Shown here: positions 4,113 to 63,075 of the stretch, one piece after another
How the letters are laid out: each line of letters opens with the position of its first letter
How positions within the stretch are numbered: the first letter of the stretch is position 1
NCBI GenBank assembly: GCA_043807255.1
Contig: JAZDGD010000009.1
Coordinates: 29,476-93,475, forward strand
DNA length: 64,000 nucleotides
Reading direction: 5' to 3'
Source of the DNA: Patescibacteria group bacterium
GTDB lineage: Bacteria > Patescibacteriota > Minisyncoccia > RBG-13-40-8-A
The notes under the pieces: generated by a model
Database searches by the model: none
Seen by the model: only the letters and a program-made list of their open reading frames with translations
What the model was told of the DNA's origin: nothing
Position numbers and translations under genes: made by a program

Positions 4113-4880
4113 TCATAATAATTCGTATTTGCCCGAACCAATAAATCTTAAATAATTTTTATTTCTTAAAAATTGTAATTGTTGTCGGATTTTATCCTTA
4201 ATGTGTTTATTTTCCGGATGAATAATTTTTAGGTCAGTTTCGAAATTATAAATATCTTGTAAATAAAATTCTTTTTTATCTATAAAATCAATACAATTCA
4301 TAATATCTAAAATCCAGCCCCTTGCGTCTGCTTTTTTAATTTTTTTAAGAAAAACCGTTTTTTGCCATTTATCTAAAACTTGTTTTTTAGAAATTTCTTT
4401 TCCGTTTTCTACGTAAAATACTTGCCCCGCTTTGGGAATTTTTGAAAATAAAATATTTGAACCGATCCAGCCAGCTCTTCTGGCTGTCTCTTTTAGGGGT
4501 TTTCTTTTCTCAACAATTTCAGAAACAAAAAAATGTTTTGGCACAACTAAAAAATCATTTACATACAGCGACTCTAAATATCCCATAAAAAAGAAATTTG
4601 GTTTAACTTGAGAATTTATTCTTTCTATCATTTTCGAATATGCTCCAGCGGGTATAATTTTATTAATCTTTCCTTTTTTTGATTTTAATTCAAAATCTTC
4701 ATTACATTTTTCACAATAAAAATCTGCTACTGGCTTATTGTTCTCATAATTAGTAATCTTTATATTCCCACAATTAGGACAAAAAATTTCATTGTTGACC
4801 CAGTTCTCCGTTAAAACTCTCGTTTTTTGAGATAAACTTTTGTATTTATCGGCAATTTTTGTATCGAAAGATAAATTCAT
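4113..4880 (-). CDS. DpnI-like methylation-dependent (GmATC-type) restriction endonuclease
   Basis: 255 aa. N-terminus has SQKTRVLTENWV...FCPNCGN...NNKPVADFYCEKCNEDFELKSKKG (zinc ribbon plus PD-(D/E)xK region). C-terminus has IKDKIRQQLQFLRNKNYLRFIGSGKYELL (winged helix). The layout and many residues match my recollection of S. pneumoniae DpnI (254 aa). Confidence 0.55.
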   Translation of the reverse strand: MNLSFDTKIADKYKSLSQKTRVLTENWVNNEIFCPNCGNIKITNYENNKPVADFYCEKCNEDFELKSKKGKINKIIPAGAYSKMIERINSQVKPNFFFMGYLESLYVNDFLVVPKHFFVSEIVEKRKPLKETARRAGWIGSNILFSKIPKAGQVFYVENGKEISKKQVLDKWQKTVFLKKIKKADARGWILDIMNCIDFIDKKEFYLQDIYNFETDLKIIHPENKHIKDKIRQQLQFLRNKNYLRFIGSGKYELL

Positions 4881-4939
4881 ATATTTTTATCATACCTCTT
4901 TTAATAAATTTTTACCAGCATTATAGATATTTTAACAGA

Positions 4940-5137
4940 AATACCCGAGGTCTGACCTCGGGTATTTCTGTATCTTATGAGGCTAAGCCTCGTAAGATAT
5001 AATCCTGATATCGGGAGGTTCGACCTCTAACGCCCCCCCGCATCAACACTTAATATTGGGAGGTCGAACCTCTTATTATGTGGGACGTGCGACGTCCCAC
5101 ATAAATACGAAACATACGGAGAACTGTTCTCCGTATC
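4940..5137. repeat. Array of six different GC-rich hairpins in tandem
   Basis: Hairpins: cccgaggtctgacctcggg (4945), cttatgaggctaagcctcgtaag (4975), gggaggttcgacctc (5013), gggaggtcgaacctc (5058), gtgggacgtgcgacgtcccac (5080), atacggagaactgttctccgtat (5115). Confidence 0.6.
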
Positions 5138-5173: not shown

Positions 5174-5291
5174 ACTGAGACAATTTCGCAGGCAAAATGC
5201 ATGGTTTCGTCCCAACAAACATGTCGTGGACGAAATTTTGCCGAGAATTAGCACGGCCACTCGCTGGAGTGGCCGATGCGTGTCGACATGA
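5174..5291 (-). ncRNA. Conserved structured element, copy A, in the 3' region of rpsI (candidate ncRNA or cis-RNA element)
   Basis: About 75% identical to 52317-52422. Compensatory changes preserve three stems. The element ends 18 nt from the rpsI stop codon. Confidence 0.4.
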
Positions 5292-12512: not shown

Positions 12513-12639
12513 GGTACTCTCCTTTTCGCTTTTTAGCGATAATTTAATGTATCAAATTAAAAAAATTTCGTCAAGCGTTTGCAAACACAAACACCACATA
12601 AATACCATAAACACTATATCAATATTATAAACATTCTTT

Positions 12640-12675
12640 GTTTCCATTTTTGTACGGCCGTAATAAAATGGAAAC
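12640..12675. repeat. Nested-palindrome repeat, family A, 3' copy (gtttccatttttgtacggccgtaataaaatggaaac)
   Basis: 11-bp outer stem enclosing a tacggccgta inner palindrome. Lies 30 nt downstream of the stop codon of 12706..13266. Confidence 0.7.
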
Positions 12676-12705
12676 AAAATTATCTGTTAAAAAACATGAA
12701 CTATG

Positions 12706-13278: not shown

Positions 13279-13315
13279 TGTTTCTATTTTATTACGGCCG
13301 TAATAAAATAGAAAC
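13279..13315. repeat. Nested-palindrome repeat, family A, 5' copy (gtttctattttattacggccgtaataaaatagaaac)
   Basis: 13 nt upstream of the ATG of 12706..13266. Differs from the 3' copy by a compensatory C/G to T/A change that keeps the outer stem intact. Confidence 0.7.
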
Positions 13316-13396
13316 AATTTGAATTTAATAATTAAAATTAATAAATCCCATAATTAATAAACGATTAAATTTATAAATCTTTCGATTATTAAAATT

Positions 13397-15160
13397 TTAT
13401 TCCAAAATTGCCTTGATGCGACGAACGCCGGATGATGATGCTTCTTCTTTTAAAATTTTAAAATGTCCCAATTCCCCTGTTTTTTGAACGTGTGGTCCAG
13501 AACAAATTTCCTGGCTGAAGGCCAGTACCGAGGCCGTCGAGGGAGCACCACCTATTGTATAAACTTTAACCATATCTCCATATTTTGATTCAAAAACTCC
13601 CATTGCTCCAATTTCTTTCGCTTTTTCTAATGACACCTCTACACAATTCACCGGTAAATTTTGTATAATCACTTCATTCACTGCATCCTCGACTTGTTTA
13701 AGTTGATCCGCGGTCATTTTTTCTGAATGCGAAAAATCTAAACGTAATCTTTCGGCAGTAATATTTGAACCTTTTTGAAAAACATGATCACCCAAAACTT
13801 TTCTTAGTGTTGCCAACAACAAATGTGTTGCAGTGTGATATTTTACAACTTGTTCTGAATTATCCGCTAATCCCGATTTAAATTTTCCTGCAGTTGCAGT
13901 GCGTGAAAGTTCTTGATGTTGTTCGAATTCTTTTTGAAATTTTTCTTTATCAATTTTTATTCCTTTTTCTTTTGCCAACTCTTCGGTGATTTCGATCGGA
14001 AAGCCGTAAGTTTGATATAAATTAAAAGCGTCTTTGCCAGAAATTAATTCTAATTTTTTCTCGCTACGCGAGATCTCGTAAAGCGAGACAAATTCTTTTA
14101 ATCCTTTTTCTATTGTTGCTCTAAATTTTCTAGTCTCATGAGAAAGTTTGTTTAAAACTTCCGCACATTTGTCTTCGAGTTCGAACTCTCGATAATCGTT
14201 TTTATAAACGTCTATAACTTTCTGAGCAACCGATTTCAAATTTTTGGAATCGAAATTTTTATCATTTGTATAGGTGTAAACTATGGCTCGTCGAATTAAA
14301 CGACGCAAAATATATCCCTGATCCTTATTAGATGGTTCAACGCCGTCAAAAAGTAAAAACACGCTAGCTTTTATATGGTCGGCAATTATTCTTTGAGACT
14401 TGAGATTAATTGATGGCAAAAGATCTTTAATTTTATCCATTATCGGTTTGAACGTATCAATTTCATAAACATTGTTATAACCATTTAAAATCGCAGTCGT
14501 TCTTTCTAACCCCATCCCTGTATCAACATTCTTTTGTTTTAACGGTTCAAGCTTTCCATCTGCTGTTTTATTAAATTCCATAAAAACATTGTTCCAAATT
14601 TCCACTCCATCATAAAAAATCTCTGTATCTGGACCACAAGGTCCGCCAGCTGATTGCCCCCACCAATTGTCTTCTTTTCCTAAAAATTTGATTTTATTTT
14701 TTGGAATTCCTAATGATTCCCAGGTTTTTGCTGAAATCTCATCTTTCGGAACAGCTTGCCCTGAGGAACTCGAAGGGTCGCCCTTAAAGCAAGTAACCGA
14801 TAATTTTTCGATTGGCAAATTTAATTCTTTGGTCAAAAATTCCCAACTCATCTTAATTGATTCTTCTTTCCAATATGATCCGAGCCCCCAATTCCCCAGC
14901 ATTTCAAAAAAGGTTAGATGCCAATTATCGCCAACTTCGTCAATATCGATTGTTCTGATGCATTTTTGTGAATTAACCAATCTATCGCCCATGGGATGTT
15001 TTTCTCCCAATAAATACGGAACCAATGGATGCATTCCTGCGGAAATAAATAAAGCACCAGGATCATTTTCCGGAATCAAAGAAGCAGAAGGAATAATTTT
15101 GTGTCCCCTCTCTTCAAAAAACTTCAGATATTTTTCTTTCAACTCTTTTGTCGTAATCAT
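13397..15160 (-). CDS. alaS: Alanyl-tRNA synthetase (short form lacking the C-terminal region)
   Basis: 587 aa with a class II catalytic core and the editing-domain motif HTATHLL. Confidence 0.8.
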   Translation of the reverse strand: MITTKELKEKYLKFFEERGHKIIPSASLIPENDPGALFISAGMHPLVPYLLGEKHPMGDRLVNSQKCIRTIDIDEVGDNWHLTFFEMLGNWGLGSYWKEESIKMSWEFLTKELNLPIEKLSVTCFKGDPSSSSGQAVPKDEISAKTWESLGIPKNKIKFLGKEDNWWGQSAGGPCGPDTEIFYDGVEIWNNVFMEFNKTADGKLEPLKQKNVDTGMGLERTTAILNGYNNVYEIDTFKPIMDKIKDLLPSINLKSQRIIADHIKASVFLLFDGVEPSNKDQGYILRRLIRRAIVYTYTNDKNFDSKNLKSVAQKVIDVYKNDYREFELEDKCAEVLNKLSHETRKFRATIEKGLKEFVSLYEISRSEKKLELISGKDAFNLYQTYGFPIEITEELAKEKGIKIDKEKFQKEFEQHQELSRTATAGKFKSGLADNSEQVVKYHTATHLLLATLRKVLGDHVFQKGSNITAERLRLDFSHSEKMTADQLKQVEDAVNEVIIQNLPVNCVEVSLEKAKEIGAMGVFESKYGDMVKVYTIGGAPSTASVLAFSQEICSGPHVQKTGELGHFKILKEEASSSGVRRIKAILE

Positions 15161-15199
15161 TGCTTAAATTATACAATAATAAAAAAAACAAATCCACTG

Positions 15200-15228
15200 T
15201 TGACAAAAATAATGGATATGGTACAATT
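15200..15228 (+). promoter_or_regulatory. Consensus sigma70-type promoter (TTGACA, 17-bp spacer, TACAAT)
   Basis: Exact hexamers with optimal spacing, read directly from the sequence. Confidence 0.6.
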
Positions 15229-15261
15229 ATATTGTCTTAAAAATTCTACTGGAGGTGTAAA

Positions 15262-15426
15262 GTGTTTAAAAAGAATTATTTTGTGATGCTGGAAGACGGC
15301 AAGATGATATCCGAACCCTTCGGATGGCGTGGCGTCCACAAGCAGGTCAAATTCCTGTTCGAGAAGGGAAAGACGTGCCGGGTCTTCAAGGAAAGAAAAA
15401 TCGGACTGAGGGTCAAAGTAGTATAG
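15262..15426 (+). other. GC-rich small transcription unit: sRNA or 54-aa small protein (GTG start, SD GGAGG)
   Basis: GGAGG lies 6 nt upstream of GTG. The reading frame VFKKNYFVMLEDGKMISEPFGWRGVHKQVKFLFEKGKTCRVFKERKIGLRVKVV uses GC-rich codons unlike neighbouring genes. The unit is bracketed by a consensus promoter and a strong terminator. Confidence 0.35.
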
Positions 15427-15455
15427 CTCCACCGACATCAGTTCTCGATCACAAC

Positions 15456-15492
15456 GGCCGATGCGGGCGAACCCGCATCGGCTTTTTTTATT
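15456..15492 (+). terminator. Intrinsic terminator (cggccgatgcgggcgaacccgcatcggc plus T8)
   Basis: Perfect GC-rich stem followed by a T tract. Confidence 0.7.
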
Positions 15493-15569
15493 TAACCCCT
15501 CCACACCTCCCCTTATCAAGGGAGGTTATTGTTTTTTGCCGAATAAAATAGAGGTGGCCCGTGCCACCC

Positions 15570-16193
15570 CTACATGTTTCTTATTCTATCGAACTCCTCC
15601 TCAGAAAATACCATCCACCGTTTTTGGTGCTTGGCGTAATATTTTTCGGCGTTTGTGCGTGTAGTTATTATCCTCCTATTGTCATTAAAAAAATAACTTT
15701 TTCTGTCGGTATTGAACGCCTTGTCATGCTCGCCAATAATCCTCTCTAAGGCACTGGCCATGCATCTTGTATCGTAATGCATGCGTGCCAACAACTTTAT
15801 TGTTGCGAAATCAACGGAAGCCTCTCGCTCTTGATCGTCAAATGCTACAATATTGTTCAAGGCATGGCAAATCTCATGCAAAACAATGGAGACTAGTTCG
15901 GCTTCGTTGTTAACAGCCTCAACAACCCTTTCGTCGATATATATTTCTTTCGTATCATTAATAATATATGCCCATTCGGGATTATTGAGCGAGGCACTAA
16001 CATAATAAATTTTAAATCCGATTTTATTTGCCCCGTCAACAAAATTAATGATTTTGTCGAGAATCTTATTTAACAATACATCACCATAGACGCCCTTATT
16101 CTCAAAATCATTAATTGTTTGCGCGAAGCAAAAATACAGGACGAGAAAGAACAAGGCCACTAAACCTTTCTTTTCCATTGTTTCCCTCCTCAA
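15570..16193 (-). CDS. Secreted/lipoprotein HExxH zinc metallopeptidase
   Basis: 207 aa with a signal peptide and the HEICH motif. Confidence 0.5.
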   Translation of the reverse strand: MRRETMEKKGLVALFFLVLYFCFAQTINDFENKGVYGDVLLNKILDKIINFVDGANKIGFKIYYVSASLNNPEWAYIINDTKEIYIDERVVEAVNNEAELVSIVLHEICHALNNIVAFDDQEREASVDFATIKLLARMHYDTRCMASALERIIGEHDKAFNTDRKSYFFNDNRRIITTRTNAEKYYAKHQKRWMVFSEEEFDRIRNM

Positions 16194-16228
16194 AATGACT
16201 TATGTTTATAATACCAAATAATTAAATT

Positions 16229-17230
16229 TTAGTCAATAATCCCCCCTCCAATAAGTTCGCTGCCTAGATAAAATACTGCGCTTTGACCAGAGGTTATCGC
16301 ACGTTGCGACTTTTTGAAAATAATTTTATTACCTTTTATTGTTGCATCTTGTGCTTTCGTAGTAGAGCGGATTTTAACTTTGCATTTTCCGTTATACTGT
16401 TTTCCCGATAGCCAATTTACATCTTTTATAATTAATTCTTTTTGCATTAAATCTTTTTCATTTTTTGATACGATTAAAATATTTTTCTTAAAATCTTTTT
16501 TCACAACATAGAACGGACCAATGCCACCAATCTCTATTCCTTTACGCTGTCCGATGGTATAGAAAATCAATCCTTTGTGCTCGCCCATCTTTTTGCCATC
16601 AACAGTAATTATATCTCCCGTTTTTGTTTTAATGTTTTGTCTTAAAAAATTATTTAAATCATTTATGAAGCATATTTCTTGACTATCTGGTTTTTTATAG
16701 ACCGGGAGTTTAAATTTCTTCGCCAATTCCCTAACTCGTTCTTTGGTGTAATCACTAAGCGGAAATAAAACTTTATTTAATTGTTTTTGATCTAATTTCC
16801 AAAGAAAATATGATTGGTCTTTTTGTTTGTCCTTGGCAACCAATAATTTTGAGCTTTTTATTTTCGCGTAATGACCAGTGGCAACATAATCCGCGCCGAG
16901 TTCCATCGCCTTGTCAATTAAAAATTTAAATTTAATATGCTTATTGCACATTACACACGGATTTGGTGTGTTTCCTTTTTTGTATTCATCAATAAAATAA
17001 TCGACAACTTTTTTCTTAAATTCTTTTTGCACATCAAGAACGTAAAATGGAATTTTTAATTTTTGAGCAACAATCTTTGCGTCTTTAGCGTTGCTATTTT
17101 TGTGCATGCGCATAAAAACACCGACAACATCATATCCTCGGTTTTTTAACAGGGCGGCAACAATAGAACTATCTACTCCGCCACTCATTGCGACAAGAAC
17201 CCTGCCTCCTCGGCGGGCAAGTTTTTTCAT
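16229..17230 (-). CDS. mnmA: tRNA-specific 2-thiouridylase MnmA
   Basis: VLVAMSGGVDSSV PP-loop and full-length similarity to MnmA. Confidence 0.8.
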   Translation of the reverse strand: MKKLARRGGRVLVAMSGGVDSSIVAALLKNRGYDVVGVFMRMHKNSNAKDAKIVAQKLKIPFYVLDVQKEFKKKVVDYFIDEYKKGNTPNPCVMCNKHIKFKFLIDKAMELGADYVATGHYAKIKSSKLLVAKDKQKDQSYFLWKLDQKQLNKVLFPLSDYTKERVRELAKKFKLPVYKKPDSQEICFINDLNNFLRQNIKTKTGDIITVDGKKMGEHKGLIFYTIGQRKGIEIGGIGPFYVVKKDFKKNILIVSKNEKDLMQKELIIKDVNWLSGKQYNGKCKVKIRSTTKAQDATIKGNKIIFKKSQRAITSGQSAVFYLGSELIGGGIID

Positions 17231-20095: not shown

Positions 20096-21960
20096 TTATT
20101 TTGTTGTCTCTCCTTCCTGGATATCCGGATTTTTGTCGTCTTTTTTTTGCGCTTCTTGTTGTGCTTTATATAATTCAGTTCCAACTTTTTGAATTGCTTG
20201 CGATAACGATTCTGACGCTTTTTTAATGCCCTCGATATCATCGCTATCTTTTATTTTCTTCAATGCCTCCACCCTGTCTTCAATTTCTTTTTTGTCTTCT
20301 GCTTTTATTTTATCACCAAATTCTTTTATTGTCTTCTCGGTTGAAAAAACTAAAGTATCGGCAGTATTTCTAATATCAACAACTTCTTTTTTCTTTTTAT
20401 CTTCTTCTGCGTGAATCTCTGCGTCTTTTTTCATTTTTTCAATGTCTTCTTTCGATAAACCTGAAGACGCTTCAATCCTAATTGATTGTTTTTTGTTTGT
20501 TGCTTTATCCAAGGCAGAAACATTTAAAACTCCGTTTGCATCAAGATCAAACGTAACTTCAACTTGCGGAATTCCTTTTGGTGCTGGCGGAATGCCATCC
20601 AAAATAAACCTACCTAGAGTTTTATTGTCACCAGCCATTGGTCTTTCGCCCTGAAGCACATGAATTTCAACTGACGGCTGATTGTCGCCTGCGGTAGAAA
20701 ACACCTGTGTCTTTGCAGCTGGAATGGTTGTGTTTTTTCAACCAATCTAGTCATAACACTACCTAAAGTTTCTATCCCCAATGATAATGGAGTGACGTCT
20801 AACAATAAAACATCTTTAACGTCTCCTTGAAATATGCCACCCTGAACAGCGGCACCCAAAGCAACTACTTCGTCGGGATTAATATCTTTGTGTGGTTCCT
20901 TGCCAAACAAATCTTTAACTTTTTGTTGCATTAATGGCATTCTGGTTTGACCGCCAACTAAAACAACTTCATCAATATCGGTAATTTTAAATCCTGAATC
21001 ATCAACAACTTGTTTGGTGATTTTTATTGCTTTGTCGATATATTCGCCAACTAAGTCCTCTAATTTTGCACGAGTAAATTTAACGTTTAAATGTTTTGGT
21101 CCATCCGAACCGCTAGTAATAAATGGAATGTTTACCTCTGTTTCAATCGCCGAAGATAATTCATGTTTTGCTTTTTCGGCAGCGTCTTTTAATCTCTGAA
21201 TTGCTAATTGATCTTTTGCCAAATCAATTCCCTCTTGTTTTTTAAATTCGTCAACAAGCCAATTCATAATGATTTGATCAAAGTCATCTCCGCCCAAGTG
21301 TGTATCGCCACCGGTTGATTTAACTTCGACGGTGTCTTTAGAAACTTCAAGCACTGAGACATCAAACGTTCCACCACCGAAATCAAAAACAACAATTTGC
21401 TCGTCTTTCTTTTTATTCAATCCGTAGGCAAGAGCAGCTGCGGTTGGTTCGTTAATAATTCTTTTAACTTTTAATCCAGCAATTTCCCCAGCGTCAATGG
21501 TCGCTTTTCTTTGTGCGTCATCAAAATAAGCCGGAACAGTAATAACTGCTTCAGTGATTTTTTCTCCCAACTTGTCTTCGGCGTCTTGTTTTAGTTTCTG
21601 TAAAATCATTGCAGAAATTTCAGCTGGTCCTTGCCATTTACCATTTAAATTAACTTCTACCGCACCTTCTTTTGATGCTCTGATTTCATAGGGTAAAAGT
21701 TTTTTATCACGCTGAACTTCGGCATCAGAAAATCTTCTGCCGATTAATCTTTTTACAGAATAAACTGTATTTTTCGAATTGGTTACAGCTTGTCTTTTTG
21801 CTAAAAGACCAACCAAACGTTCGCCTGCTTTTGAAACAGCAACAATCGAAGGAGTTGTTCTGTTTCCTTCTTTGTTTTCAATTATTCTTGGCTCGCCTCC
21901 CTCAACAATTGCCATCGCTGAATTAGTCGTGCCCAAATCGATACCTAATATCTTTGACAT
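20096..21960 (-). CDS. dnaK: Chaperone DnaK (Hsp70); reading frame broken by a -1 shift at a T6 homopolymer (20733-20738)
   Basis: ORFs 20614..21960 and 20096..20704 together span DnaK. With 7 T instead of 6, translation reads ...[33 protein letters not shown]. Confidence 0.85.
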
Positions 21961-22014: not shown

Positions 22015-22527
22015 TTACTTATTAATTTTAACCTTACTTGCTCTAATTATTTTATTATTAAACCTATAGCCTTTTTGAATTTCTTCGGCGACAATCCCCT
22101 GTTCGCCACTGTCAACTTCGCCAACTGACTCATGAAACTCTGTGTTAAATTTTTCACCAAGTGCTTGAATTTCTTCGAGCCCTTGGCTTTTTAAAATACC
22201 CTTGAGCTGATTGTAAATCTGCGAAAGCCCGATCGCCTCTGGCGATTTAGAGTCCCCGTGTTTTATTGCTAATTCAAAACTATCTAAAACCGGCAAAATT
22301 TCATAAATCAAACCCTCGTTTGCAAATTTAAAAATTTCGGAAATTTTTGCTTCTTGCTCCTTTTTATAATTTATCAAATCTGCTTTTGCTCTTTGCCATC
22401 CACCCAAATATTCCGCCCTTTCTTGTTCGCAAAGACCCAATTTATCTTTGGTCTTCTTTATTTTGTGTTCGGCTTTTTCCGTATCTTCTTCCGTTTCGTA
22501 TTTAATTTCTTCGTTATCTTTATTCAT
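22015..22527 (-). CDS. grpE: Nucleotide exchange factor GrpE
   Basis: 170 aa, GrpE-like. Sits between hrcA and dnaK. Confidence 0.75.
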   Translation of the reverse strand: MNKDNEEIKYETEEDTEKAEHKIKKTKDKLGLCEQERAEYLGGWQRAKADLINYKKEQEAKISEIFKFANEGLIYEILPVLDSFELAIKHGDSKSPEAIGLSQIYNQLKGILKSQGLEEIQALGEKFNTEFHESVGEVDSGEQGIVAEEIQKGYRFNNKIIRASKVKINK

Positions 22528-23092: not shown

Positions 23093-23119
23093 TTGGCACT
23101 CTATTAATACGAGTGCTAA
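23093..23119. promoter_or_regulatory. CIRCE operator (TTGGCACTC-N9-GAGTGCTAA)
   Basis: Close match to the TTAGCACTC-N9-GAGTGCTAA consensus. Positioned directly upstream of hrcA-grpE-dnaK-dnaJ. Confidence 0.75.
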
Positions 23120-23235
23120 TTCAATATTATTACATAAAATAGAACGTGTCAAGTTTATCCCGACTCCACGTCGGGGCCCGACGCAAGGCCGGGGCAAGGT
23201 TTGTTGTATGAGATTTATTTTGGTATAATTAAGGC

Positions 23236-24150
23236 ATGCAAAAAATTCAAATCAAAAATTTAACTTGGGTTGACATAACTGACCCCAAAAAAGAAGATAT
23301 TGATTATCTTCAATCTTTAAGCTTTCACCCTGTTGTTTTAGGAGAACTACAATCTCCCACTTTGCGACCAAAGGTAGAAGAATATGACAATTATCTTTAT
23401 ATGGTCTTACATTTTCCAATTTACCATCCCAAAGAAAAAACCAGCAAATCAATGGAAATAGATTTTCTTATAACCAAATACTCCCTAATTACAGTACGAT
23501 ATGGAAAAATTCAACCCCTACAAGAGTTCTGGGAAAAATGTAAGTCTGGAGATGAAAGTATATTGTTTAATTACTCTTCTGCTTCTTTGCTCTATTACAT
23601 GCTTCAAGAACTAAATAAATTTTCATTTAGACAAATTGATCATATTACCAAAAAAATAGACGCACTCGAAGAAAAAGTTTTCAAAGAAAGAGACCCTAAA
23701 AACGAGGAAAAATTAGTTGAAGAAATTTCTATCATTAGACGAGACATCCTAGATTTTAGAAGAACCATTAAGCCGCAAGAAACAATTCTTAGTTCTCTAA
23801 AAACCAGAGGTGTCAATTTTTTTGGACAAACCACTCTTCCCTATTTTAACGATATAATTGGAGATCATTTAAGGGTGTGGGAACTATTAGACAATCACAA
23901 GGAAACGATAGAATCGTTACAACAAGCCAATGATTCACTTTTGTCGAACAAAACAAACCGCATTATGAAATTAATTACGTTGTTTGCGGTCATTGTTTTC
24001 CCGCTCAGCTTACTTGCTGCATTGTTTGGCATGAACACCCATTATATGCCAATTGTTGGCATTGAGCATGATTTTTGGATTATCTTAGGAATAATGGCCA
24101 CAGGAACATTCGGAATGATTGCCCTGTTTAAAAGAAAAAAATGGCTATAA
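23236..24150 (+). CDS. corA: CorA-family magnesium transporter
   Basis: FGMNTHYMP (GMN motif) followed by C-terminal TM helices. Confidence 0.75.
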
Positions 24151-25532
24151 GATTATACAATACGCTAACCAGAAAAAAGGAAATTTTTAAACCCATTAAG
24201 AAGGGTTTTGTTGGTATTTATACTTGCGGGCCAACCGTTTATTCTTTTGCTCACATTGGGAATTTAAGAAGTTATGTTTTTGCTGATATTTTAAAAAGAA
24301 TTTTTATTTACAATAAATATAAAGTAAAACACGTAATCAATGTAACTGATGTTGGACATTTAACCTCTGATGCCGATGAAGGCGAAGATAAAATAGAAAA
24401 AGCGGCCTTGCGCGAAAATAAAAAAGCTGAAGATATCGCAAATTATTATTTTGGATTTTTCAAACGAGACCTAGAAAAACTTAATATTTTAAAACCAGAA
24501 ATTTATTGTAAGGCAACCGAACACATTAAAGAACAAATTGAGTTAATCAAAAAGCTTGAAAAAAAAGGATTTACTTATAAAACCTCTGATGGAATTTATT
24601 TTGATACATCTAAAATAAAAGACTACGGTAAGCTTGCACAATTAAAAAAAGAAGGGTTAATTGCTGGCAAGAGAATTGATTTTAAAGAAAAGAAAAATAT
24701 CACTGATTTTGCTTTATGGAAATTCTCCCCGCCTATCGGCGGGGCAAGCTTCTCTCTTAAGAGACAACAGGAATGGAAAAGTCCTTGGGGCGTTGGCTTT
24801 CCCGGCTGGCACATTGAATGCTCGGCAATGTCTATAAAATATCTCAGTGAACATTTTGATATTCATACTGGCGGGATTGACCACATTCCAATTCATCACA
24901 CCAACGAGATTGCCCAGTCCGAAGCAGCTACCGAAAAGAAATTCGTAAATTATTGGATACACGGCGAATTCCTTAATTTTAAAGGGAAAAAAGTTTCGAA
25001 ATCGAAAGGCGGGCTTTATACCGTTTCGGAGTTGCAAGAAAAAGGATTTAATCCCCTTGCATTTCGTTATTTAACATTTATCACTCATTATCGTGACCCA
25101 TTAAATTTTTCCCTAGAATCATTACAAAGCGCACAAGAATCATATAATCGATTAAAAAATATTATATGGGAGAACCGAGACAAAAGAACCAAAAAAGAGT
25201 ATTTGAAAGAATTTCAAAAAGCTATTAACGATGACTTAAATATGCCCAAGGCATTAAGCATTGTTTGGAAAATGGTACGAGACAAGAAACCCGCCCGCAA
25301 CGCCAGCAAGCTGTCTTGCTTGGCAGGCGAGGTGGACAAGGTTTTTGGATTGGATTTGTTAAAGAAAGAAAAGATAGAAATTTCTTCCGGCGTTGAGGAT
25401 TTAATCAAAGACCGCGAACAATCAAGAAAGAATAAGGACTGGCAAAAATCCGACGAGCTTCGTGACAAAATAAAATCCCTCGGTTATACCGTCGAAGACA
25501 CCCCCGAAGGACAAAAAATTAAGAAAATATAA
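24141..25532 (+). CDS. cysS: Cysteinyl-tRNA synthetase
   Basis: HIGN and KVSKSKG (KMSKS) motifs and the SPWG..GWHIECS zinc site. Confidence 0.9.
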
Positions 25533-25604: not shown

Positions 25605-26972
25605 ATGGCAAAACATAACCAAGAGAAACAAGACAAACTTCCACCACAAAGCATTGAAGCAGAACAATCTGTTTTGGGTTCATTGCTTTTAAATAAAAAA
25701 GCGATTATTAGAATTGCTGATATTTTACATCCTGAAGATTTTTATCGCGATACCCACAGAATCATCTATGAAACAATGATTCAGCTTTTTGAAAAAAATG
25801 AACCAATCGATGTTTTGACTGTCGCTTCTCGACTGGAAGACAATGGACAATTGGAAAAAATTGGCGATTCAAGTTATCTAACCAATCTTGTAAATTGCGT
25901 TCCAACTGCCTCTAATATTGTCCATTACGCAAAAATTGTTCAAAGGAAAAAGCTTTTAAGAGACTTAATTGACGCAGCATACGATATTACTCAATTAAGT
26001 TTCGAGGAATCGCAAGATATTGAAAATATTTTAGATCAAGCAGAAAAAAATATATTTGCTGTCTCACAAAAATCATTAAAACAATATTTTATACCAATTA
26101 AACCCGCGCTTGCAGAAGCGTTTGAAAGAATTGATTTAATACACAAACACGAAGGTGGTGCGCTTCGCGGGACCCCAACTGGATTTAAGGATTTAGATAA
26201 TATTTTGGCAGGACTTCAAAAATCCGATTATATCTTATTGGCAGCCAGACCAAGTTTAGGAAAAACCACGTTAGCCCTTGATATCGCCAGACATGTTGCA
26301 ATTAGAGAAAAGAAAACTGTGGGGATTTTCAGTTTAGAAATGTCTTCTGCCCAACTTGTTGATAGAATGCTTTGCGCTGAAGCAAAAATTGATTTATGGA
26401 AATTAAGAACTGGCCGACTTTCAGATAAAGGCGAAGATAATGATTTTTCAAGAATTCAAGAGGCAATGGGAACACTTTCAGAAAGTCCAATATTTATTGA
26501 TGACACCGCTGGCTCGACAGTGCTAGAAATTAAAACTAAAGCCAGACGACTTCAATCAGAACACGAGTTAGGACTAATTATTGTTGATTATATTCAATTA
26601 ATAAATGCTCCTGGATACCAAAACAACCCCGTTCAACAAATGACTGATATTTCCAGATCATTGAAGGCATTGGCACGTGAATTAGATGTTCCCGTTTTAG
26701 CGGTTTCCCAATTAAATCGCGCAACCGAACAAAGATCACCAAGAATCCCGCGTTTATCTGACCTTAGAGAATCCGGCTCCTTAGAGCAAGATGCCGATGT
26801 TGTAATTTTGATTTACAGAGAGGACGTTGACATTAAACAAAGTGAAAGAAAAAATATTGCTGATATTTTTATTGCCAAACACAGAAACGGCCCAACCGGA
26901 CAAATCGAACTTTATTTCGACCAAGACAAGGTAAGCTTTCAAAATCTTGCCAAGCAAACATACGAGGAATAA
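25605..26972 (+). CDS. dnaB: Replicative DNA helicase DnaB
   Basis: Walker A GKT and full-length DnaB-like helicase motifs. Confidence 0.9.
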   Translation: MAKHNQEKQDKLPPQSIEAEQSVLGSLLLNKKAIIRIADILHPEDFYRDTHRIIYETMIQLFEKNEPIDVLTVASRLEDNGQLEKIGDSSYLTNLVNCVPTASNIVHYAKIVQRKKLLRDLIDAAYDITQLSFEESQDIENILDQAEKNIFAVSQKSLKQYFIPIKPALAEAFERIDLIHKHEGGALRGTPTGFKDLDNILAGLQKSDYILLAARPSLGKTTLALDIARHVAIREKKTVGIFSLEMSSAQLVDRMLCAEAKIDLWKLRTGRLSDKGEDNDFSRIQEAMGTLSESPIFIDDTAGSTVLEIKTKARRLQSEHELGLIIVDYIQLINAPGYQNNPVQQMTDISRSLKALARELDVPVLAVSQLNRATEQRSPRIPRLSDLRESGSLEQDADVVILIYREDVDIKQSERKNIADIFIAKHRNGPTGQIELYFDQDKVSFQNLAKQTYEE

Positions 26973-27005: not shown

Positions 27006-27626
27006 ATGTTACCAAGATCCATACAAAATTTAATTGATGAGTTTGCCAAACTTCCATCAGTGGGGCCGAGACAAGCGGCTCGTTTTGTTTTTTATTTATT
27101 AAATGAGCCCAAAGAAGATATTGAAAAATTCGCTAAGAAATTATTTATCCTAAAAAAGATTAAACATTGTCATTTCTGTAATCGTGCAATCGAGCCCTCC
27201 TTCGCCAAGGCTACGGAGGGCAAGCCCGCCTTGTGTGATATTTGCAAGAACAAAGATAGAGACAGAAGTTTAATCTGTATTATAGAAAAAGACACCGACA
27301 TTGAATCAATTGAAAAAACTAAAAGATACGATGGCATTTATTATGTAATTGGAACCGAAGATGAAAATATCCAATTGAACCGACTCAAGGATTTAATCTC
27401 GCGAATTAAAAAATCCGAAAAGGAATTAAATGAAATTATTATTGCTACTGACGCCACAACTGAGGGCGAAACAATTGCCCTATATTCCGCAAGACAACTC
27501 GAGGAACTTAAAAAAACCTACCCAGGGCTTAAAATAACCCGCTTAGGACGCGGTTTATCCACTGGAGCAGAGTTAGAGTATATGGACGAAGATACGCTTT
27601 CCAACGCATTGTTGGGGAGAAAATAA
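27006..27626 (+). CDS. recR: Recombination protein RecR (zinc finger carries an inserted loop)
   Basis: C4 zinc finger CHFC...CDIC and a Toprim domain (IIIATDATTEGE). Confidence 0.8.
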   Translation: MLPRSIQNLIDEFAKLPSVGPRQAARFVFYLLNEPKEDIEKFAKKLFILKKIKHCHFCNRAIEPSFAKATEGKPALCDICKNKDRDRSLICIIEKDTDIESIEKTKRYDGIYYVIGTEDENIQLNRLKDLISRIKKSEKELNEIIIATDATTEGETIALYSARQLEELKKTYPGLKITRLGRGLSTGAELEYMDEDTLSNALLGRK

Positions 27627-27642
27627 AGATTTAAGAATAAAA

Positions 27643-27680
27643 AAAACGCCCCGATGAACATCGGGGGCGTTTTTTTTATT
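27643..27680. terminator. Bidirectional intrinsic terminator (aaaaaaacgccccgatgaacatcgggggcgtttttttt)
   Basis: GC stem flanked by an A run on one side and a T run on the other. Lies between the convergent recR and rplU. Confidence 0.7.
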
Positions 27681-30780: not shown

Positions 30781-30885
30781 TTTTTTATATATATTAATTA
30801 TTAATTTATTAATTGTTAGTTAATATACAGTATAGCACACATTTAATGTGGTGCCATGGGAATTCAAGCCCAAGTTTTTTAGAAT

Positions 30886-30916
30886 AAATCTTACGAGGTT
30901 AAACCTCGTAAGATTT
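30886..30916. repeat. REP-like palindrome, copy 1 (aaatcttacgaggttaaacctcgtaagattt)
   Basis: Perfect 14-bp inverted repeat overlapping the transposase stop codon. Confidence 0.7.
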
Positions 30917-31610
30917 ATTCTAATGACAATTCTCTTGCGTCGTTTACTGCCATGTCCTTCAGCCATTTTTCTATATTTTGTTTGTATTTCCCATCTCCAC
31001 CAAACACTCCCAATAAAAATTCTCTATTTGTAATTGAAGGAAAGTTCTTTTTACCTGCGTAATCCAAATAACTAGACCAACGATAATTGCCTAAATATTC
31101 CATCGCTCCGTTATAATTATTTAGTTTTCTTGCTCGCCATTCCGGAAAACTGAGATCTAGTGGATTCAAATGAATATAATATGGAAGGTTTAAGAAATGA
31201 TTTTGTTTGTCGATTAAAATTGATTTATACGTACTCTGAAATAATGTTCCCCTTCTTTTGTATTTTTTATTGAATGACATCGTATAACCGGTTCCTAATT
31301 TTTGCATAAACCTAGAAATACCATTATCTTTTTTCTGTTTCAACAATAAATGATAATGATTTGGCATCAAACAAAATGCTAAAATTTCCACAAGCAATTT
31401 TCTCTCTTTAATCTTGCGAGGTTTAACCTCGTAAGATTCTAGGTCCATAGATTTATAATATATATTTTCTGCGGGTGCCTCATCGTTAAATTCATACAGA
31501 TCGTGAATAAAACGAAGATGGTCCTTGTCGTCTGCAAATATGTTTCTCTGTTCAACTCCGTGATTTAAAACGTGATAAATTTCATTATTTTCAAATTGTG
31601 GTTTTTTCAT
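30915..31610 (-). mobile_element. tnpA: IS200/IS605-type Y1 (HUH) transposase, REP-associated (RAYT-like)
   Basis: N-terminal YHVLNHGVEQRNIF, HUH motif PNHYHLLL, and catalytic Tyr context GTLFQSTYKSILID. Flanked by REP-like palindromes. Confidence 0.6.
31410..31438. repeat. REP-like palindrome, copy 2, inside the transposase CDS in-frame
   Basis: aatcttgcgaggtttaacctcgtaagatt, which encodes SYEVKPRKI. Confidence 0.65.
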
Positions 31611-31640
31611 AATATTTTTATATTATCATAATTAAAATAT

Positions 31641-31667
31641 GTTTACGAGGTTAAACCTCGTAAGATT
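31641..31667. repeat. REP-like palindrome, copy 3
   Basis: gtttacgaggttaaacctcgtaagatta. Confidence 0.7.
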
Positions 31668-31721
31668 AATTGTAACATAAAAATTGATATTTAGATATAA
31701 TTCTGCTATATTTTAACTAAC

Positions 31722-31794
31722 GGCCCCATCGTCTAGTGGCCCAGGACATCAGATTCTCATTCTGAAAACACCGGTTCAACTCCGGTTGGGGCTA
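31722..31794 (+). tRNA. tRNA-Glu (anticodon CTC)
   Basis: Hand-folded cloverleaf: acceptor GGCCCCA/TGGGGCT, anticodon loop TTCTCAT, T-loop TTCAACT. Confidence 0.7.
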
Positions 31795-31800
31795 AAACCA

Positions 31801-31833
31801 AAAATCTTACGAGGTTTAACCTCGTAAGATTTT
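31801..31833. repeat. REP-like palindrome, copy 4
   Basis: aaaatcttacgaggtttaacctcgtaagatttt. Confidence 0.7.
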
Positions 31834-43987: not shown

Positions 43988-44050
43988 GTTAATGTGAATG
44001 CAATGTTCCCTGCCCGCAACGCCAGCAAGCTGGCTTGCGTGGCGGGCGGG

Positions 44051-44734
44051 TTACCACAAATTCAGCTTGTTAATCAAAACGTCCTTATTCTCGTTAATCA
44101 AGTCTCTAACAAAACGGTCATACATATCATAACGATAATTAAATTCTTTTGCTGACATTGTGACAAAATTTAATTCCTTGCCTACCTCCGCTTCCAGGTC
44201 CTTGGAAAAAGTTGTTAATTTTCTTGTATTTATCTTGTCACCCACAATCAATAAATCCGCTCCGTCGGCTTCATTGTTTCTAAAAATTCCACCCAAAACC
44301 AAAAGCTTAACATTGCCAATTTTTCGTACATTATTAATCAATTCACCTTTTGAGGAAATTGTTGATTTTAAAATTAAGTCTTTTAATTCTTTCAAAAAGT
44401 CAAAATTATTATTCAAAGAATAAACTATTCTCCCCTGTTTTTTTCTGCTTTCAATCAGGCCAATTCTTTCTAATTTTTTAATTTCTTGTTTTACGGCAGA
44501 ATTATTCGTTCTTACCATTTTCAGAATTTCTCTAACCTGAAAGGCATCAACCGAATTTCTAAAAAAGAATTTCATCAATTTTACCTTTGCCAACGATTCA
44601 AATAACTGCTCTAATGTCCCCTTGCCTATTATGTTTTTGGCCTTTTGTCGGGATTTGTGCTTTAAAATTCGCTTCCTCGCCTTTTTGACGGGTTTTTTGG
44701 TCATTTTCTTGGTTTTCTTTATCTTCTTTTTCAT
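44051..44734 (-). CDS. Putative transcriptional regulator (Lys-rich N-terminus, wHTH, nucleotidyltransferase-like C-terminus)
   Basis: wHTH-like VREILKMVRTNNSAVKQEIKKLERIGLIE. C-terminal LGGIFRNNEADGADLLIVGD. Confidence 0.35.
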   Translation of the reverse strand: MKKKIKKTKKMTKKPVKKARKRILKHKSRQKAKNIIGKGTLEQLFESLAKVKLMKFFFRNSVDAFQVREILKMVRTNNSAVKQEIKKLERIGLIESRKKQGRIVYSLNNNFDFLKELKDLILKSTISSKGELINNVRKIGNVKLLVLGGIFRNNEADGADLLIVGDKINTRKLTTFSKDLEAEVGKELNFVTMSAKEFNYRYDMYDRFVRDLINENKDVLINKLNLW

Positions 44735-46784: not shown

Positions 46785-46839
46785 CAGACCACGAATTACT
46801 AATCTGTACGAATATACAGATAAAAACAGAAACGCCCTG

Positions 46840-46878
46840 CAGTTGCAGGACGTTTCTGTTTGGAGGCCGAACCTCCGC
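46840..46878 (+). terminator. Intrinsic terminator (11-bp stem aaacagaaacg...cgtttctgttt)
   Basis: Nested hairpin plus a T tract after the 44799..46784 gene. Confidence 0.6.
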
Positions 46879-46951
46879 CTATTATTTCAATTCAATCGTT
46901 GCACCAATCCCGATCTCTATCGAGGATCCCGACCCGAGGTCGGGACTGCAC

Positions 46952-47359
46952 CTATTTAAGCTCTACGGTGGCTCCAACGCCTTCTAACCTTGTTTTTAAC
47001 TCTTCTGCATCTTCTTTCTTAAGATTTTCCTTAATAACTTTCGGAGCCGCGTCAACAATTGCTTTTGATTCCTTTAATCCAAGCCCAGAAATTTCACCGA
47101 TGATTTTAATAACCTGAATCTTTTGATCTCCAGCTGATTTTAATTCGACATTAAAAGCTGTTTTTTCAACTTCGACGCTCGCTTCTGGCGAGGTCGGAGT
47201 CCCGACTCCCGCGGACGTCGGGATTGCCGCACTAACTCCAAATTTTTCTTCTAAAACTTTAACAAGTTCAGACAAATCCATAACAGTCATTTTTTCAATT
47301 TCATCAACTAATTTTTTGAATTTTTCTGGAACCTTTACGTCCTTGTTTTTTTCAGTCAT
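46952..47359 (-). CDS. rplL: 50S ribosomal protein L7/L12
   Basis: Ala/Glu-rich and L12-like. Confidence 0.85.
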   Translation of the reverse strand: MTEKNKDVKVPEKFKKLVDEIEKMTVMDLSELVKVLEEKFGVSAAIPTSAGVGTPTSPEASVEVEKTAFNVELKSAGDQKIQVIKIIGEISGLGLKESKAIVDAAPKVIKENLKKEDAEELKTRLEGVGATVELK

Positions 47360-47364
47360 CTTAT

Positions 47365-47455
47365 TATGATGCCAATCTACTAATCTTATGCCAATCTACA
47401 GACTGCGAATTCGCAGTTCGCATAATTGGCATTAAATTCGCATATTCGCATTATG
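47365..47455. repeat. 90-bp palindromic leader repeat, family 1 (rplL leader); near-identical copy at 62985-63075 in the rplK leader
   Basis: gccaatctactaatcttatgccaatctacagactgcgaattcgcagttcgcataattggcat... Confidence 0.7.
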
Positions 47456-47966
47456 ATTTATTGCTTATCGCACTTAATACTCCAATCAAATTCCTTAAAT
47501 TGCCCTGCAATACGTTTGCAAAACCACTGATTGGACTCTTTATTGAACCAACTAATTTGGCCAATAAAATTTCTCGAGAAGGAATTTTTGATAACTCTTT
47601 AATTTCTAATGCCGACAAAACTCTGCCTTCAACCATACCGCCTAAAATTTTAAATTTATCATTGGTTTTGGCTAGCTTAGTAAGAACCTTGATTAAAGAT
47701 ATCGGATCGCCATATCCAAAACTTGATGCCAAAGAACCACTAAATTCTGACAAATCCATTTCTTTGCCTTCTTTTTTGAGAGCCAATTTCATTAAAGTTT
47801 TCTTCGCAACTCTATATTCCCCTTCTAGTTTTCGAAGTTCTTTTCGAATAATTTGAATGTCTTTAACCTTAACCCCTTTGGCGTCGGTAAAAATCAAAGA
47901 TTTCTGGCGTTTAATTTTGTCAGCTAACTCCTCTACAATTTCCTGTTTTTGTTTTTTTGTTAACAT
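47451..47966 (-). CDS. rplJ: 50S ribosomal protein L10
   Basis: MLTKKQKQEIVEELADKIK... The listed ORF is extended 23 codons upstream. Confidence 0.8.
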   Translation of the reverse strand: MLTKKQKQEIVEELADKIKRQKSLIFTDAKGVKVKDIQIIRKELRKLEGEYRVAKKTLMKLALKKEGKEMDLSEFSGSLASSFGYGDPISLIKVLTKLAKTNDKFKILGGMVEGRVLSALEIKELSKIPSREILLAKLVGSIKSPISGFANVLQGNLRNLIGVLSAISNKS

Positions 47967-51187: not shown

Positions 51188-51324
51188 GTCAACCCCACCA
51201 AGGCGGGGTTGACTCTTATATATTTATATTATATCATATACTATATGAAAAAAGATATTCATCTCCCGACCGCTGTCGGGATCCCGACCGAAGTCGGGAC
51301 AGGCCCAATAAGTAAAAATAGTTT

Positions 51325-51537
51325 ATGAAAAAAAATATACATCCAGAATATTACGAACAAGCAACAGTCCATTGTGGTTGTGGCAAAATATTTAAAATGG
51401 GTGCAACCAAGCCGGAAATACACGTTGAGGTGTGTAGCGCTTGCCATCCTTTTTATACTGGTCAAGACAAAATCTTGGACTCTGCTGGACGTGTTGATAA
51501 ATTCAAAAAACGATTAGCCAAAAAAACAATTAAATAA
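51325..51537 (+). CDS. rpmE: 50S ribosomal protein L31
   Basis: [11 protein letters not shown]...CGCG...[10 protein letters not shown]. Confidence 0.85.
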
Positions 51538-52316: not shown

Positions 52317-52422
52317 ACTGAGACAACTTCGGAAGCCAAAAGCACGGTTTTTTCTGAAAGAAAAATTTTGGCTGAGAATTAATGCAGCCACCCGCTGGGG
52401 TGGCTGACATGTGTCGACATAT
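52317..52422 (-). ncRNA. Conserved structured element, copy B (3' region of the SLT-domain gene)
   Basis: Aligns with 5174-5291. Ends 18 nt after the stop codon of 52441..53763. Confidence 0.4.
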
Positions 52423-62331: not shown

Positions 62332-62557
62332 ACCCTGTAGTAGATTTTTGACTAATTTATTATCGTCCCTCGTAGCATTTTGATCCGATGAACATCGGAC
62401 CAGTCAAAAATTCACTACGGGGCATGTTTTTATTGTAACATAAAAAGCGGTCTTTTCCAACCGCTTTTTGTTTATCCCGACGCCCTGGTCGGGGACCTAA
62501 TCAACAATCTCTATGCCCCTATATCAAGCCATTGGCTTGATCGGGGCGACATTGAAT

Positions 62558-62984: not shown

Positions 62985-63075
62985 ATTATTATAATGCCAA
63001 TCTACTAATCTTATGCCAATCTACAGACTGCGAATTCGCAGTTCGCAATATTGGCATTAAGTTCGCATATTCGCA
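62985..63075. repeat. 90-bp palindromic leader repeat, family 1 (rplK leader copy)
   Basis: About 90% identical to 47365-47455. Confidence 0.7.

Follow-up and report, generated by a model that had tools for sequence, protein, structure and literature searches.

A 64,000-nucleotide stretch of the genome of a Patescibacteria group bacterium (contig JAZDGD010000009.1 of assembly GCA_043807255.1, positions 29,476 to 93,475; here called the window) carries short GC-rich hairpin sequences both between genes and, in frame, inside conserved genes such as cysS, recR and alaS. Alignments with related genomes indicate that most of the intragenic segments belong to dispersed DNA families, which occur in coding as well as intergenic DNA and across genomes. 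The best reading, and one that we regard as probable rather than certain, is that they represent families of hairpin repeats resembling repetitive extragenic palindromes (REPs), the copies of which are filtered by selection. The subject was raised by an original prediction made from the sequence alone, which listed five GC-rich palindromes (two in cysS and one each in recR, alaS and a transposase gene) and proposed that REP-like elements invade essential genes at surface loops and persist as small peptide insertions; all five sequences are present where it had placed them.

Window and genomes compared

The window has a GC content of 34.7% and is about 92% coding. Pfam searches confirmed CysS at 24141-25532 (plus strand), RecR at 27006-27626 (plus strand), AlaS at 13397-15160 (minus strand) and a Y1/IS200-like transposase (PF01797) at 30915-31610 (minus strand), and also found DnaB, MnmA, CorA and L7/L12. 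Syntenic DNA was compared from L001, a 626-kb chromosome whose CysS is 82% identical to that of the window, from the closest relatives L165 and L166 (AlaS 88-91% identical), from L081 and L083, and from about 160 more CysS loci, by means of codon-aware alignments; the CysS protein alignment comprised 120 homologues. Hairpin counts were set against shuffles of 30-nt blocks, which preserve local GC islands, and the stability of hairpins was obtained by folding them as single-stranded DNA, with z scores taken from composition-matched shuffles.

The source is a metagenome-assembled genome (MAG), and dnaK contains a probable homopolymer error (see below), so that an assembly or binning artefact, with chimeric GC-rich reads entering an AT-rich MAG, has to be considered. 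Assemblies made independently and deposited in different archives agree on the elements and on their positions (L081 from ENA, L082 from Logan and L085 from JGI; L083 from NCBI and L084 from JGI; L165 from ENA and L166 from JGI), which excludes an assembly artefact, and the reading frame is preserved in all copies. The probability of this explanation is regarded as practically negligible.

Enrichment and genomic placement of the hairpins

Perfect GC-rich hairpins with a stem of at least 6 bp occur 44 times in the window, against 7.7 ± 2.6 expected, and those with a stem of at least 7 bp occur 17 times, against 0.8 expected; the listed GC-rich hairpin sequences are not products of chance. Non-coding DNA makes up roughly 8% of the window and holds about 13 of the 17 strong hairpins; about 4 are situated in genuine coding sequence. 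Hairpin density over 131 loci was 0.227 per kb in non-coding and 0.039 per kb in coding DNA, and the intergenic copies are found mainly at the 3' ends of genes. Several families can be distinguished, with stems of 6-15 bp and elements of 15-54 nt, and with the exception of the RecR element most of them fold significantly better than shuffled sequences. A scan of the window against Rfam matched only its six tRNAs and placed no hairpin in a known RNA family.

It could be argued that no DNA element is involved at all and that hypervariable surface loops with many Gly, Pro, Ala, Ser and Arg residues happen to use GC-rich codons. Two GC islands of the window are indeed of this kind: those at 24781-24812 (the SPWG motif of CysS) and at 26147-26183 (the DnaB linker HEGGALRGTPTGF) were tried as elements and rejected, being conserved Gly/Pro/Arg/Trp motifs, both without an indel and the first invariant across homologues. 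The L12 hinges are likewise rich in Ala, Gly and Pro in all homologues, and the GC excess in a broad survey of inserts (given below) is small. Against this, nearly identical DNA of 15-40 nt recurs in unrelated genes, spacers and genomes, perfect palindromy lies far above that of composition-matched shuffles, and silent sites are conserved; the main cases thus already contradict an explanation by composition, which is considered very unlikely.

Elements in CysS

The first element in CysS (24727-24755, plus strand) consists of a hairpin at 24727-24744, CCCCGCC-TATC-GGCGGGG, followed by a GC-rich tail, and the whole encodes PPIGGASFS. The hairpin, which has a 7-bp stem made entirely of GC pairs, is read in frame, as predicted, encodes SPPIGGA and folds at -9.5 kcal/mol (z = -3.6). 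It is located in the loop that precedes the conserved SPWG motif. Among the 120 homologues, WKFSEKPGxRQQEW is the commonest sequence at this site, while at least five types of insert are scattered over the tree and many relatives carry inserts that differ from that of the window; L018 has a hairpin with an 8-bp stem there and L129 a perfect 34-nt palindrome.

The second element (25290-25332, plus strand) takes the place of the ancestral A-x-G-K-I-x-T-I-K, with 27 nt replaced by 39 nt. It is carried by the window, L081, L083, L168 and L169, a patchy minority of the 120 homologues, and is missing from L001, L165 and most others. Between its core at 25293-25332 and the intergenic sequence at 44012-44051, 36 of 40 nt agree and one 21-mer is exact; this identity of 90% is slightly above the 85% first noted. 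A degenerate 40-mer found these two places only, with none expected from 100 shuffles. The intergenic copy (44008-44051) directly adjoins the stop codon of a gene on the minus strand (44051-44734) and is the better palindrome of the two (-17.8 kcal/mol, z = -3.3). When codons for the same amino acid were compared among the window, L081, L083 and L168, third positions were 85-93% identical within the element and 55-62% identical in the remainder of cysS. The copy of L169 is drifting towards AT, and decay of element copies in this direction was also seen in L001.

In an AlphaFold model of CysS, with a mean predicted local distance difference test score (pLDDT) of 84, residues 200-202 and 384-389 are coil with pLDDT below 50, which places both sites in predicted coil. 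Together with the tip of the RecR zinc finger and the L12 hinge described below, this agrees with the loop location that had been proposed.

It was also observed that many of the closest CysS sequences (59-67% identity; L002, L004-L010 and others), in species-representative genomes, come from MAGs labelled as DPANN (Woese-, Pace- and Nanoarchaeota). This points to gene transfer between Patescibacteria and DPANN, or else to mis-binned or mislabelled MAGs.

Elements in RecR, AlaS, GrpE and MnmA

In RecR, 36 nt encoding PSFAKATEGKPA (27195-27230, plus strand) replace 18 nt encoding HDEKLI, and the stem GCCCTCC-N14-GGAGGGC spans 27194-27221. The zinc finger is expanded, as the original prediction had stated, and reads CxxC-x18-CxxC, compared with CxxC-x8-CxxC in PDB 3vdp; alignment with solved RecR structures leaves a gap of 10 amino acids, and the element occupies the tip of the finger loop. 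It was found in the window alone: where the window reads PSFAKATEGKPAL, relatives of 83-86% identity have HDEKLIL. The stability of the hairpin, taken alone, is no better than that of composition-matched shuffles (z = -0.5). The same loop has an independent hairpin with a 9-bp stem in L071 and an independent insert in L077, and a related sequence (SPSAKATEE) was found in the N-terminus of L12 of L167.

The alaS palindrome that was listed, AAGGG-TCG-CCCTT at 14774-14786, exists, though with a stem of only 5 bp it is weak. Alignment shows that the real insert is the GC-rich, non-palindromic repeat which it abuts, and that the palindrome itself is marginal. This first insert (14750-14786, minus strand) contains the 27-nt segment CCTTCGAGTTCCTCAGGGCAAGCTGTT at 14750-14776, which encodes PSSSSGQAV in place of Asp-Asn-Ala. 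Neither P0392/L165 (88-91% identical) nor six further homologues have it; P0398 carries an insert of its own, PSTRSARSGQV, which is independent, at this site, and 22 of 26 nt of the window's segment are identical to an insert in DnaK of L083, which in turn occupies a site where L165 carries a different hairpin. A second AlaS insert (14042-14092, minus strand), found in the window only, adds 45 nt or 15 amino acids (SLYEISRSEKKLELI) and includes the palindrome TCTCGCTACGCGAGATCTCGTAAAGCGAGA; in a third (13510-13552, minus strand), a GC-rich patch, GAPSTASVLAF replaces TPDCPY with a net gain of five residues.

Smaller inserts are present in GrpE and MnmA. The sequence TCGCC-AGA-GGCGA-TC in grpE (22231-22246, minus strand) encodes SPEAI and is missing from L165 and L001. 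The N-terminal insert of MnmA (17189-17221, minus strand) encodes the seven residues LARRGGR (GCCCGCCGAGGAGGCAGGG) and is related to the CCTGCC...GGCAGG family; it is missing from L001 (84% identical), and variants occur in L083 and L081. Between alaS and mnmA, which are directly adjacent in L165 and L081, the window has two extra open reading frames (15161-16228), one of them with a weak match to SprT-like metalloproteases, and GC-rich hairpins are present there at 15457-15482, 15505-15526 and 15553-15568.

The L7/L12 hinge and the TCCCGAC family

The pattern CCCGAC-N3-12-GTCGGG has six copies in the window, where none is expected; five are intergenic and one is in the hinge of ribosomal protein L7/L12. 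Single TCCCGAC half-sites are only about two-fold over-represented, and the family is present in more distant lineages too. The hinge contains two hairpins (47171-47224, minus strand), TCCCGAC-N10-GTCGGGA followed by CTCCGACCTCGC-CAGAA-GCGAGCGTCG, which together encode IPTSAGVGTPTSPEASVE between the two domains of the protein. The closest homologues read MPMMAGGAAGGGEPAEK, and there is no net change in length. In L167, whose L12 is only 68% identical at the protein level, 22 of 22 nt are common with the window, silent sites included.

Among the intergenic members, a TCCCGAC/GTCGGGG cluster in the hrcA-corA spacer (23155-23204) has an orthologous copy in L001 and no counterpart in the corresponding spacer of L165. 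The hairpin TCCCGAC-CCG-AGGTCGGGA (46925-46947) is directly 3' of the L12 stop codon and is distinct from a terminator-like hairpin with a T-rich tail (46824-46861), which is located about 90 nt beyond. A further hairpin, CCCGAC-GCCCTG-GTCGGG (62476-62493), follows the L11 gene. T-rich tails were seen at the hairpins 27649-27666, where runs of A and T flank the stem, and 52385-52406; a scan for terminator-like sites between 43000 and 53000 returned neither the CCCGAC hairpins nor the copy at 44012.

A tandem TCCCGAC-N4-GTCGGGA pair (51264-51299; z = -3.8) is found upstream of rpmE, the gene for L31. It is the only element with a flanking direct repeat, of 25 nt (ATACTATATGAAAAAAGATATTCAT / ATAGTTTATGAAAAAAAATATACAT, 51238-51350), which none of 400 random controls equalled. 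The repeat duplicates the start codon and the first six codons of rpmE: the upstream copy opens a dead-end frame of 27 codons, and the downstream copy, 80 nt later and out of frame with it, starts the intact gene. This looks like an insertion into the 5' end of the gene which was rescued by the duplication.

Other inverted repeats were noted in these spacers. Upstream of hrcA, at 23096-23116, the repeat GCACTC-N9-GAGTGC (ttagcactctattaatacgagtgctaa) is conserved in L165; we take it to be an operator of the CIRCE type (controlling inverted repeat of chaperone expression), outside the GC-rich hairpin families. Long AT-rich, nearly perfect palindromes with arms ...CAGAAA / TTTCTG... are found between genes at 4935-4971, 12637-12678, 13279-13316 and 46824-46861. 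The last of these is terminator-like by scoring, and the palindromes as a group are probably ordinary bidirectional terminators of this genome.

Families across genomes, gain and loss

Besides the CysS/44012 pair and the CCCGAC family, a third family common to coding and intergenic DNA is represented by TCCGCCCAAGGCGGA. Three genomes (L001, L081 and L085) have this sequence between dnaB and recR, and L081 has it in a second spacer as well; coding copies are found in DnaJ of L083 and, as a doubled sequence, at CysS site 1 of L129, and the related GGCGGATCCGCC is found in AlaS of L081. The expectation that the repeat families would also be intergenic is borne out by these three cases. An 18-nt palindrome, CTGCCTGCCGGCAGGCAG, has two sites in L083 (in MnmA and near AlaS) and one in L071.

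Gains and losses are evident even between the closest genomes. When the window is compared with L165, private inserts of the window are seen in AlaS (three), GrpE and CysS, and one insert of L165, the hairpin CCCCGC-CAATA-GCGGGG, in DnaK. L083 carries hairpins in MnmA, DnaJ and another site of RecR, and L081 one in AlaS, and the window lacks the hairpin that L001 and L081 have between dnaB and recR. The alignments hence indicate that the segments in CysS, RecR, AlaS, GrpE, MnmA and L7/L12 are lineage-specific insertions or replacements, in agreement with the original prediction when the close syntenic relatives are used for comparison. Orthologues with the same residues written in AT-rich codons, which would have pointed to conserved loops, were not found for CysS, RecR or AlaS: most orthologues lack the residues, and the carriers of CysS site 2 use the same GC-rich codons. 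The view that the trait is peculiar to one genome did not hold, as the relatives carry private sets of their own in DnaK, DnaJ, MnmA, AlaS, RecR and CysS, which makes the trait clade-wide on present alignments.

At 17 of 18 elements no flanking direct repeat or target-site duplication was found above background, the rpmE pair being the exception. Every intragenic copy in well-conserved genes keeps the frame and has no stop codon, and peptide signatures such as PSTSSGQA and SAQGG are shared by different genes in one and the same frame. These observations bear on another explanation, in which the intragenic elements escape translation, being cut out of the mRNA or skipped by the ribosome. The elements form stable hairpins, and bypass has been reported for GC clusters of Magnusiomyces capitatus (PMC8811140). 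Against this stand the in-frame, stop-free copies throughout and the signatures that recur in one frame, the latter being what would be expected under selection at the peptide level, and the one out-of-frame case, at rpmE, was rescued by a duplicated start codon; we therefore judge removal or bypass highly improbable.

Viral contigs were also searched. The 15-mer TCCGCCCAAGGCGGA gave 68 matches, mostly in contigs of 52-66% GC, a number taken as approximately that of chance in a collection of this size, and the 19-mer of the CysS element gave a single match in an unrelated contig of 59% GC; these matches provide no evidence for a phage vector.

The Y1 transposase cassette

The palindrome listed for the transposase gene belongs to a separate, AT-rich system (30879-31833, minus strand), in which the Y1 (HUH) gene at 30915-31610 is accompanied by four copies of AATCTTACGAGGTTWAACCTCGTAAGATT. 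A palindrome search placed these at 30879-30923, 31410-31438 (within the coding sequence), 31640-31665 and 31801-31833, and for the palindrome CTTACGAGGTTWAACCTCG the four copies compare with none expected. The copy inside the gene is real, one of the four, though AT-rich and not GC-rich as had been supposed, and its host cannot be counted among the essential genes.

The internal copy encodes SYEVKPRKI in a region of variable length, its palindrome core being GAGGTTNAACCTC, and the motifs EV[KQ]P, YE..PRK and SYEVGLRKI recur in Y1 homologues at about 50-60% identity. Because these residues recur at such a distance, the internal palindrome is a conserved feature of the transposase family, not the private invasion that was proposed; it is possibly a cis element within the gene. 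The best match of the Y1 protein was to the REP-associated tyrosine transposases (RAYTs; NCBIfam NF047646), with 46.6 bits against a cut-off of 80 and a partial match over residues 70-151. A sequence search of solved structures returned no homologue of the transposase, and the whole cassette is missing from L001.

Origin and persistence of the elements

According to the reading we favour, several families of GC-rich, mostly palindromic repeats of about 15-50 nt would be a normal component of this clade of Patescibacteria. Their usual home would be non-coding DNA, mostly just downstream of genes, with new copies appearing sporadically elsewhere, without target duplication, and being filtered by selection. 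In essential genes the survivors would be those that are in frame, free of stop codons and situated in structurally tolerant loops or linkers; stop codons are rare in the copies because these are GC-rich. Surviving copies would be translated into short peptide stretches enriched in Pro, Ser, Gly, Ala and Arg, and may be neutral passengers, old copies eroding towards AT under AT-biased mutation or disappearing. Copying may be due to an HUH/Y1 transposase that acts in trans on hairpins of single-stranded DNA, which is the preferred guess, or to hairpin-primed template switching or gene conversion, which would fit the replacement events better.

Several points weigh against this reading. A number of the coding events (CysS site 2, RecR, the L12 hinge) overwrite native residues, and such replacement is not predicted by simple transposition; the original idea of REP-like elements that persist as insertions stands as regards repeat families in loops and needs correction as regards these events. 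Lineages that share one CysS element at one site do not group as sisters on a neighbour-joining tree, which requires recombination, homing or repeated loss. No mobilising enzyme linked to the GC-rich families was found in the window; the palindromes around its single Y1 transposase are of another, AT-rich family and the protein falls below the RAYT cut-off, so that it is at most a candidate mobiliser. GTAG/CGTC end tags were not consistently present in the copies inspected. A broad survey of 166 inserts (8 genes, about 150 loci) gave a weak average signal, with a GC content of 0.40 against 0.36 and with stems of 7 bp or more in 9% against 3.5%; elements are only a subset of the inserts and no general property of them. 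Translation of the inserts is itself presumed. Finally, the conservation of silent sites, the pattern of stems and loops and the stem changes that keep pairing would also fit a selected function.

The last point leads to the main rival, according to which the hairpins are not passengers but nucleic-acid signals under selection, acquired or evolved repeatedly where the protein tolerates them. Candidates would be RNA structures with a part in protecting or processing transcripts or in pacing ribosomes between domains, and DNA sites recognised by a protein of binding, nicking or uptake. The stems TCCCGAC/GTCGGGA are kept while their loops vary across lineages with 43-57% CysS identity, and in the hairpins with a gcccg loop the stems CTCCCCCT/AGGGGGAG and CCCCTCCT/AGGAGGGG differ in sequence with pairing kept. 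The high identity of third positions at CysS site 2, the 22 of 22 nt in an L12 hinge of much lower protein identity, the placement of intergenic copies mostly at gene 3' ends and that of several coding copies between domains or at the zinc-finger tip point in the same direction. On the other hand, the identity of CysS site 2 with the 44012 copy includes the loop, which suggests copying rather than convergence, the sites are empty of elements in close relatives, the copies of L169 and L001 are decaying towards AT, a single loop can be served by many different sequences, and the CCCGAC hairpin downstream of L12 lacks a T-rich tail, the separate terminator-like hairpin being located further on. 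A selected signal is hence held to be a real but minor possibility.

An extension of this idea, that the hairpins are a selected code at the nucleic-acid level, common to the clade and repeatedly introduced into coding sequence by patch, gene-conversion or homing-like replacement, seems doubtful to us. It would account at once for the same element in the same loop of non-sister lineages, the frozen silent sites, the co-varying stems and the overwritten residues, and the function could be that of a recognition hairpin for a protein of recombination, uptake or RNA processing, or of a co-translational pause signal between domains.

Other features of the window

The dnaK gene is split into two overlapping open reading frames (20614-20704), where the A run gaaaaaacacaacc is one base shorter; in L001 and L165 the gene is intact, with about 620-630 codons. 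The split is probably a homopolymer error of sequencing or assembly, or possibly a real frameshift; disruption by a hairpin was considered and rejected, since the difference is a single nucleotide in the A run. An AT-rich intergenic element of about 95 nt is present in two copies that are 93% identical, at 47363-47457 between the L10 and L12 genes and at 62990-63080 between nusG and the L11 gene, with internal repeats (ATGCGAAT, GATTGGCAT) and a central hairpin (ACTGCGAATTCGCAGT). A gene for a DpnI-like restriction endonuclease (Dam-replacing, methyl-directed) follows the S9 gene at 4113-4880; it is not at that position in L165, and GC-rich and terminator-like hairpins surround it (4935-4971, 5011-5042 and 5250-5285). 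An identical 36-nt stretch occurs at 171-206 and 711-746, 540 nt apart, which indicates a long direct repeat, possibly a repeated protein domain.

Significance and comparison with known systems

Patescibacteria have some of the smallest and most streamlined of cellular genomes, and yet essential genes of translation, replication and chaperone function appear to have been altered repeatedly by repeat DNA. The elements would account for many odd small insertions and for patches rich in Pro, Ser and Gly in the proteins examined, and may do so elsewhere in the candidate phyla radiation. They may serve as presence/absence markers between close lineages and call for caution in alignment-based phylogenies and structure prediction, while the replacements, the frozen silent sites and the recurrence at the same sites raise questions about how hairpin DNA moves and whether it is used. 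In the open-access literature, nothing was found that describes coding palindromes in the candidate phyla radiation or Patescibacteria.

Uptake signal sequences of Haemophilus and DNA uptake sequences of Neisseria consist of one motif in hundreds to thousands of copies, are constrained at the DNA level, are found in tolerant parts of proteins and often form inverted pairs near gene ends. The elements of the window are similarly short, show constraint at the DNA level, are accommodated in tolerant parts of proteins and often form inverted pairs close to gene ends, but they comprise many unrelated families with few copies each. Miniature inverted-repeat transposable elements, which have terminal inverted repeats and a target-site duplication, differ in that the elements described here have no target-site duplications, are shorter than about 50-500 bp and consist of a single hairpin each. 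Elements of the insertion sequence group IS200/IS605, like REPs, insert without target duplications. Hairpin DNA, the lack of target-site duplications and a Y1 HUH enzyme nearby are common to IS200/IS605 and the present case; no conserved target tetra- or pentanucleotide was identified beside the elements, however, and the overwriting of native sequence is foreign to that mechanism.

With REPs and their RAYTs the elements have in common their form, as imperfect palindromes of 20-40 nt, an extragenic bias, a position at gene 3' ends, adjacent pairs (51264-51299) and insertion without target duplications, and the window contains a Y1/HUH transposase that is flanked by its own palindromes. REPs, by contrast, are extragenic by definition. 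The RAYT gene flanked by REPs of its own family has a counterpart in the window for the AT-rich family and none for the GC-rich families, and the Y1 protein falls short of the NF047646 cut-off. Most REPs are described as marked by GTAG/CGTC end tags (PMC3733652), and no shared tag of this type was found at the flanks of the six CCCGAC copies or of the CysS/44012 pair. The REP-like class that had been proposed therefore applies to form and intergenic bias, and stops short of membership of the REP/RAYT group proper.

A close bacterial parallel in form is provided by the Rickettsia palindromic elements (RPEs), which are about 150 bp long and fall into ten families, nearly half of the copies of three of them being in open reading frames (PMC10969869). 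As in the present case, these are dispersed palindromes of several families in a small AT-rich bacterial genome, found both between genes and as in-frame insertions in housekeeping genes that are unrelated to one another, apparently where the protein fold allows it (PMC10969869); here the genes are those of CysS, RecR, AlaS, GrpE, MnmA and L12, and in relatives those of DnaK, DnaJ, MnmA, AlaS and RecR. The two differ in that RPEs measure about 100-150 bp and have a conserved peptide of their own, whereas the present elements measure 15-54 nt, are strongly GC-rich on a background of 35% GC, often overwrite residues and belong to an unrelated phylum.

The GC clusters of yeast mitochondria are mostly intergenic and are also found in frame in var1; their loops change faster than their stems, and they merge, shuffle and have been linked to gene conversion (PMC8811140). 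They differ in being organellar and in having AG/TAG terminal repeats that are read as target-site duplications, of which none were found here, and the ribozyme or bypass behaviour proposed for some of them is without evidence in the window. As short GC-rich palindromes in an AT-rich genome they are, nevertheless, the closest to our elements in size and composition, by analogy of form only. Coding palindromes are well known mainly from Rickettsia and from the mitochondria of fungi and nematomorphs, and if confirmed genome-wide the present elements would extend them, in a much smaller form of 5-18 codons, to a major bacterial radiation.

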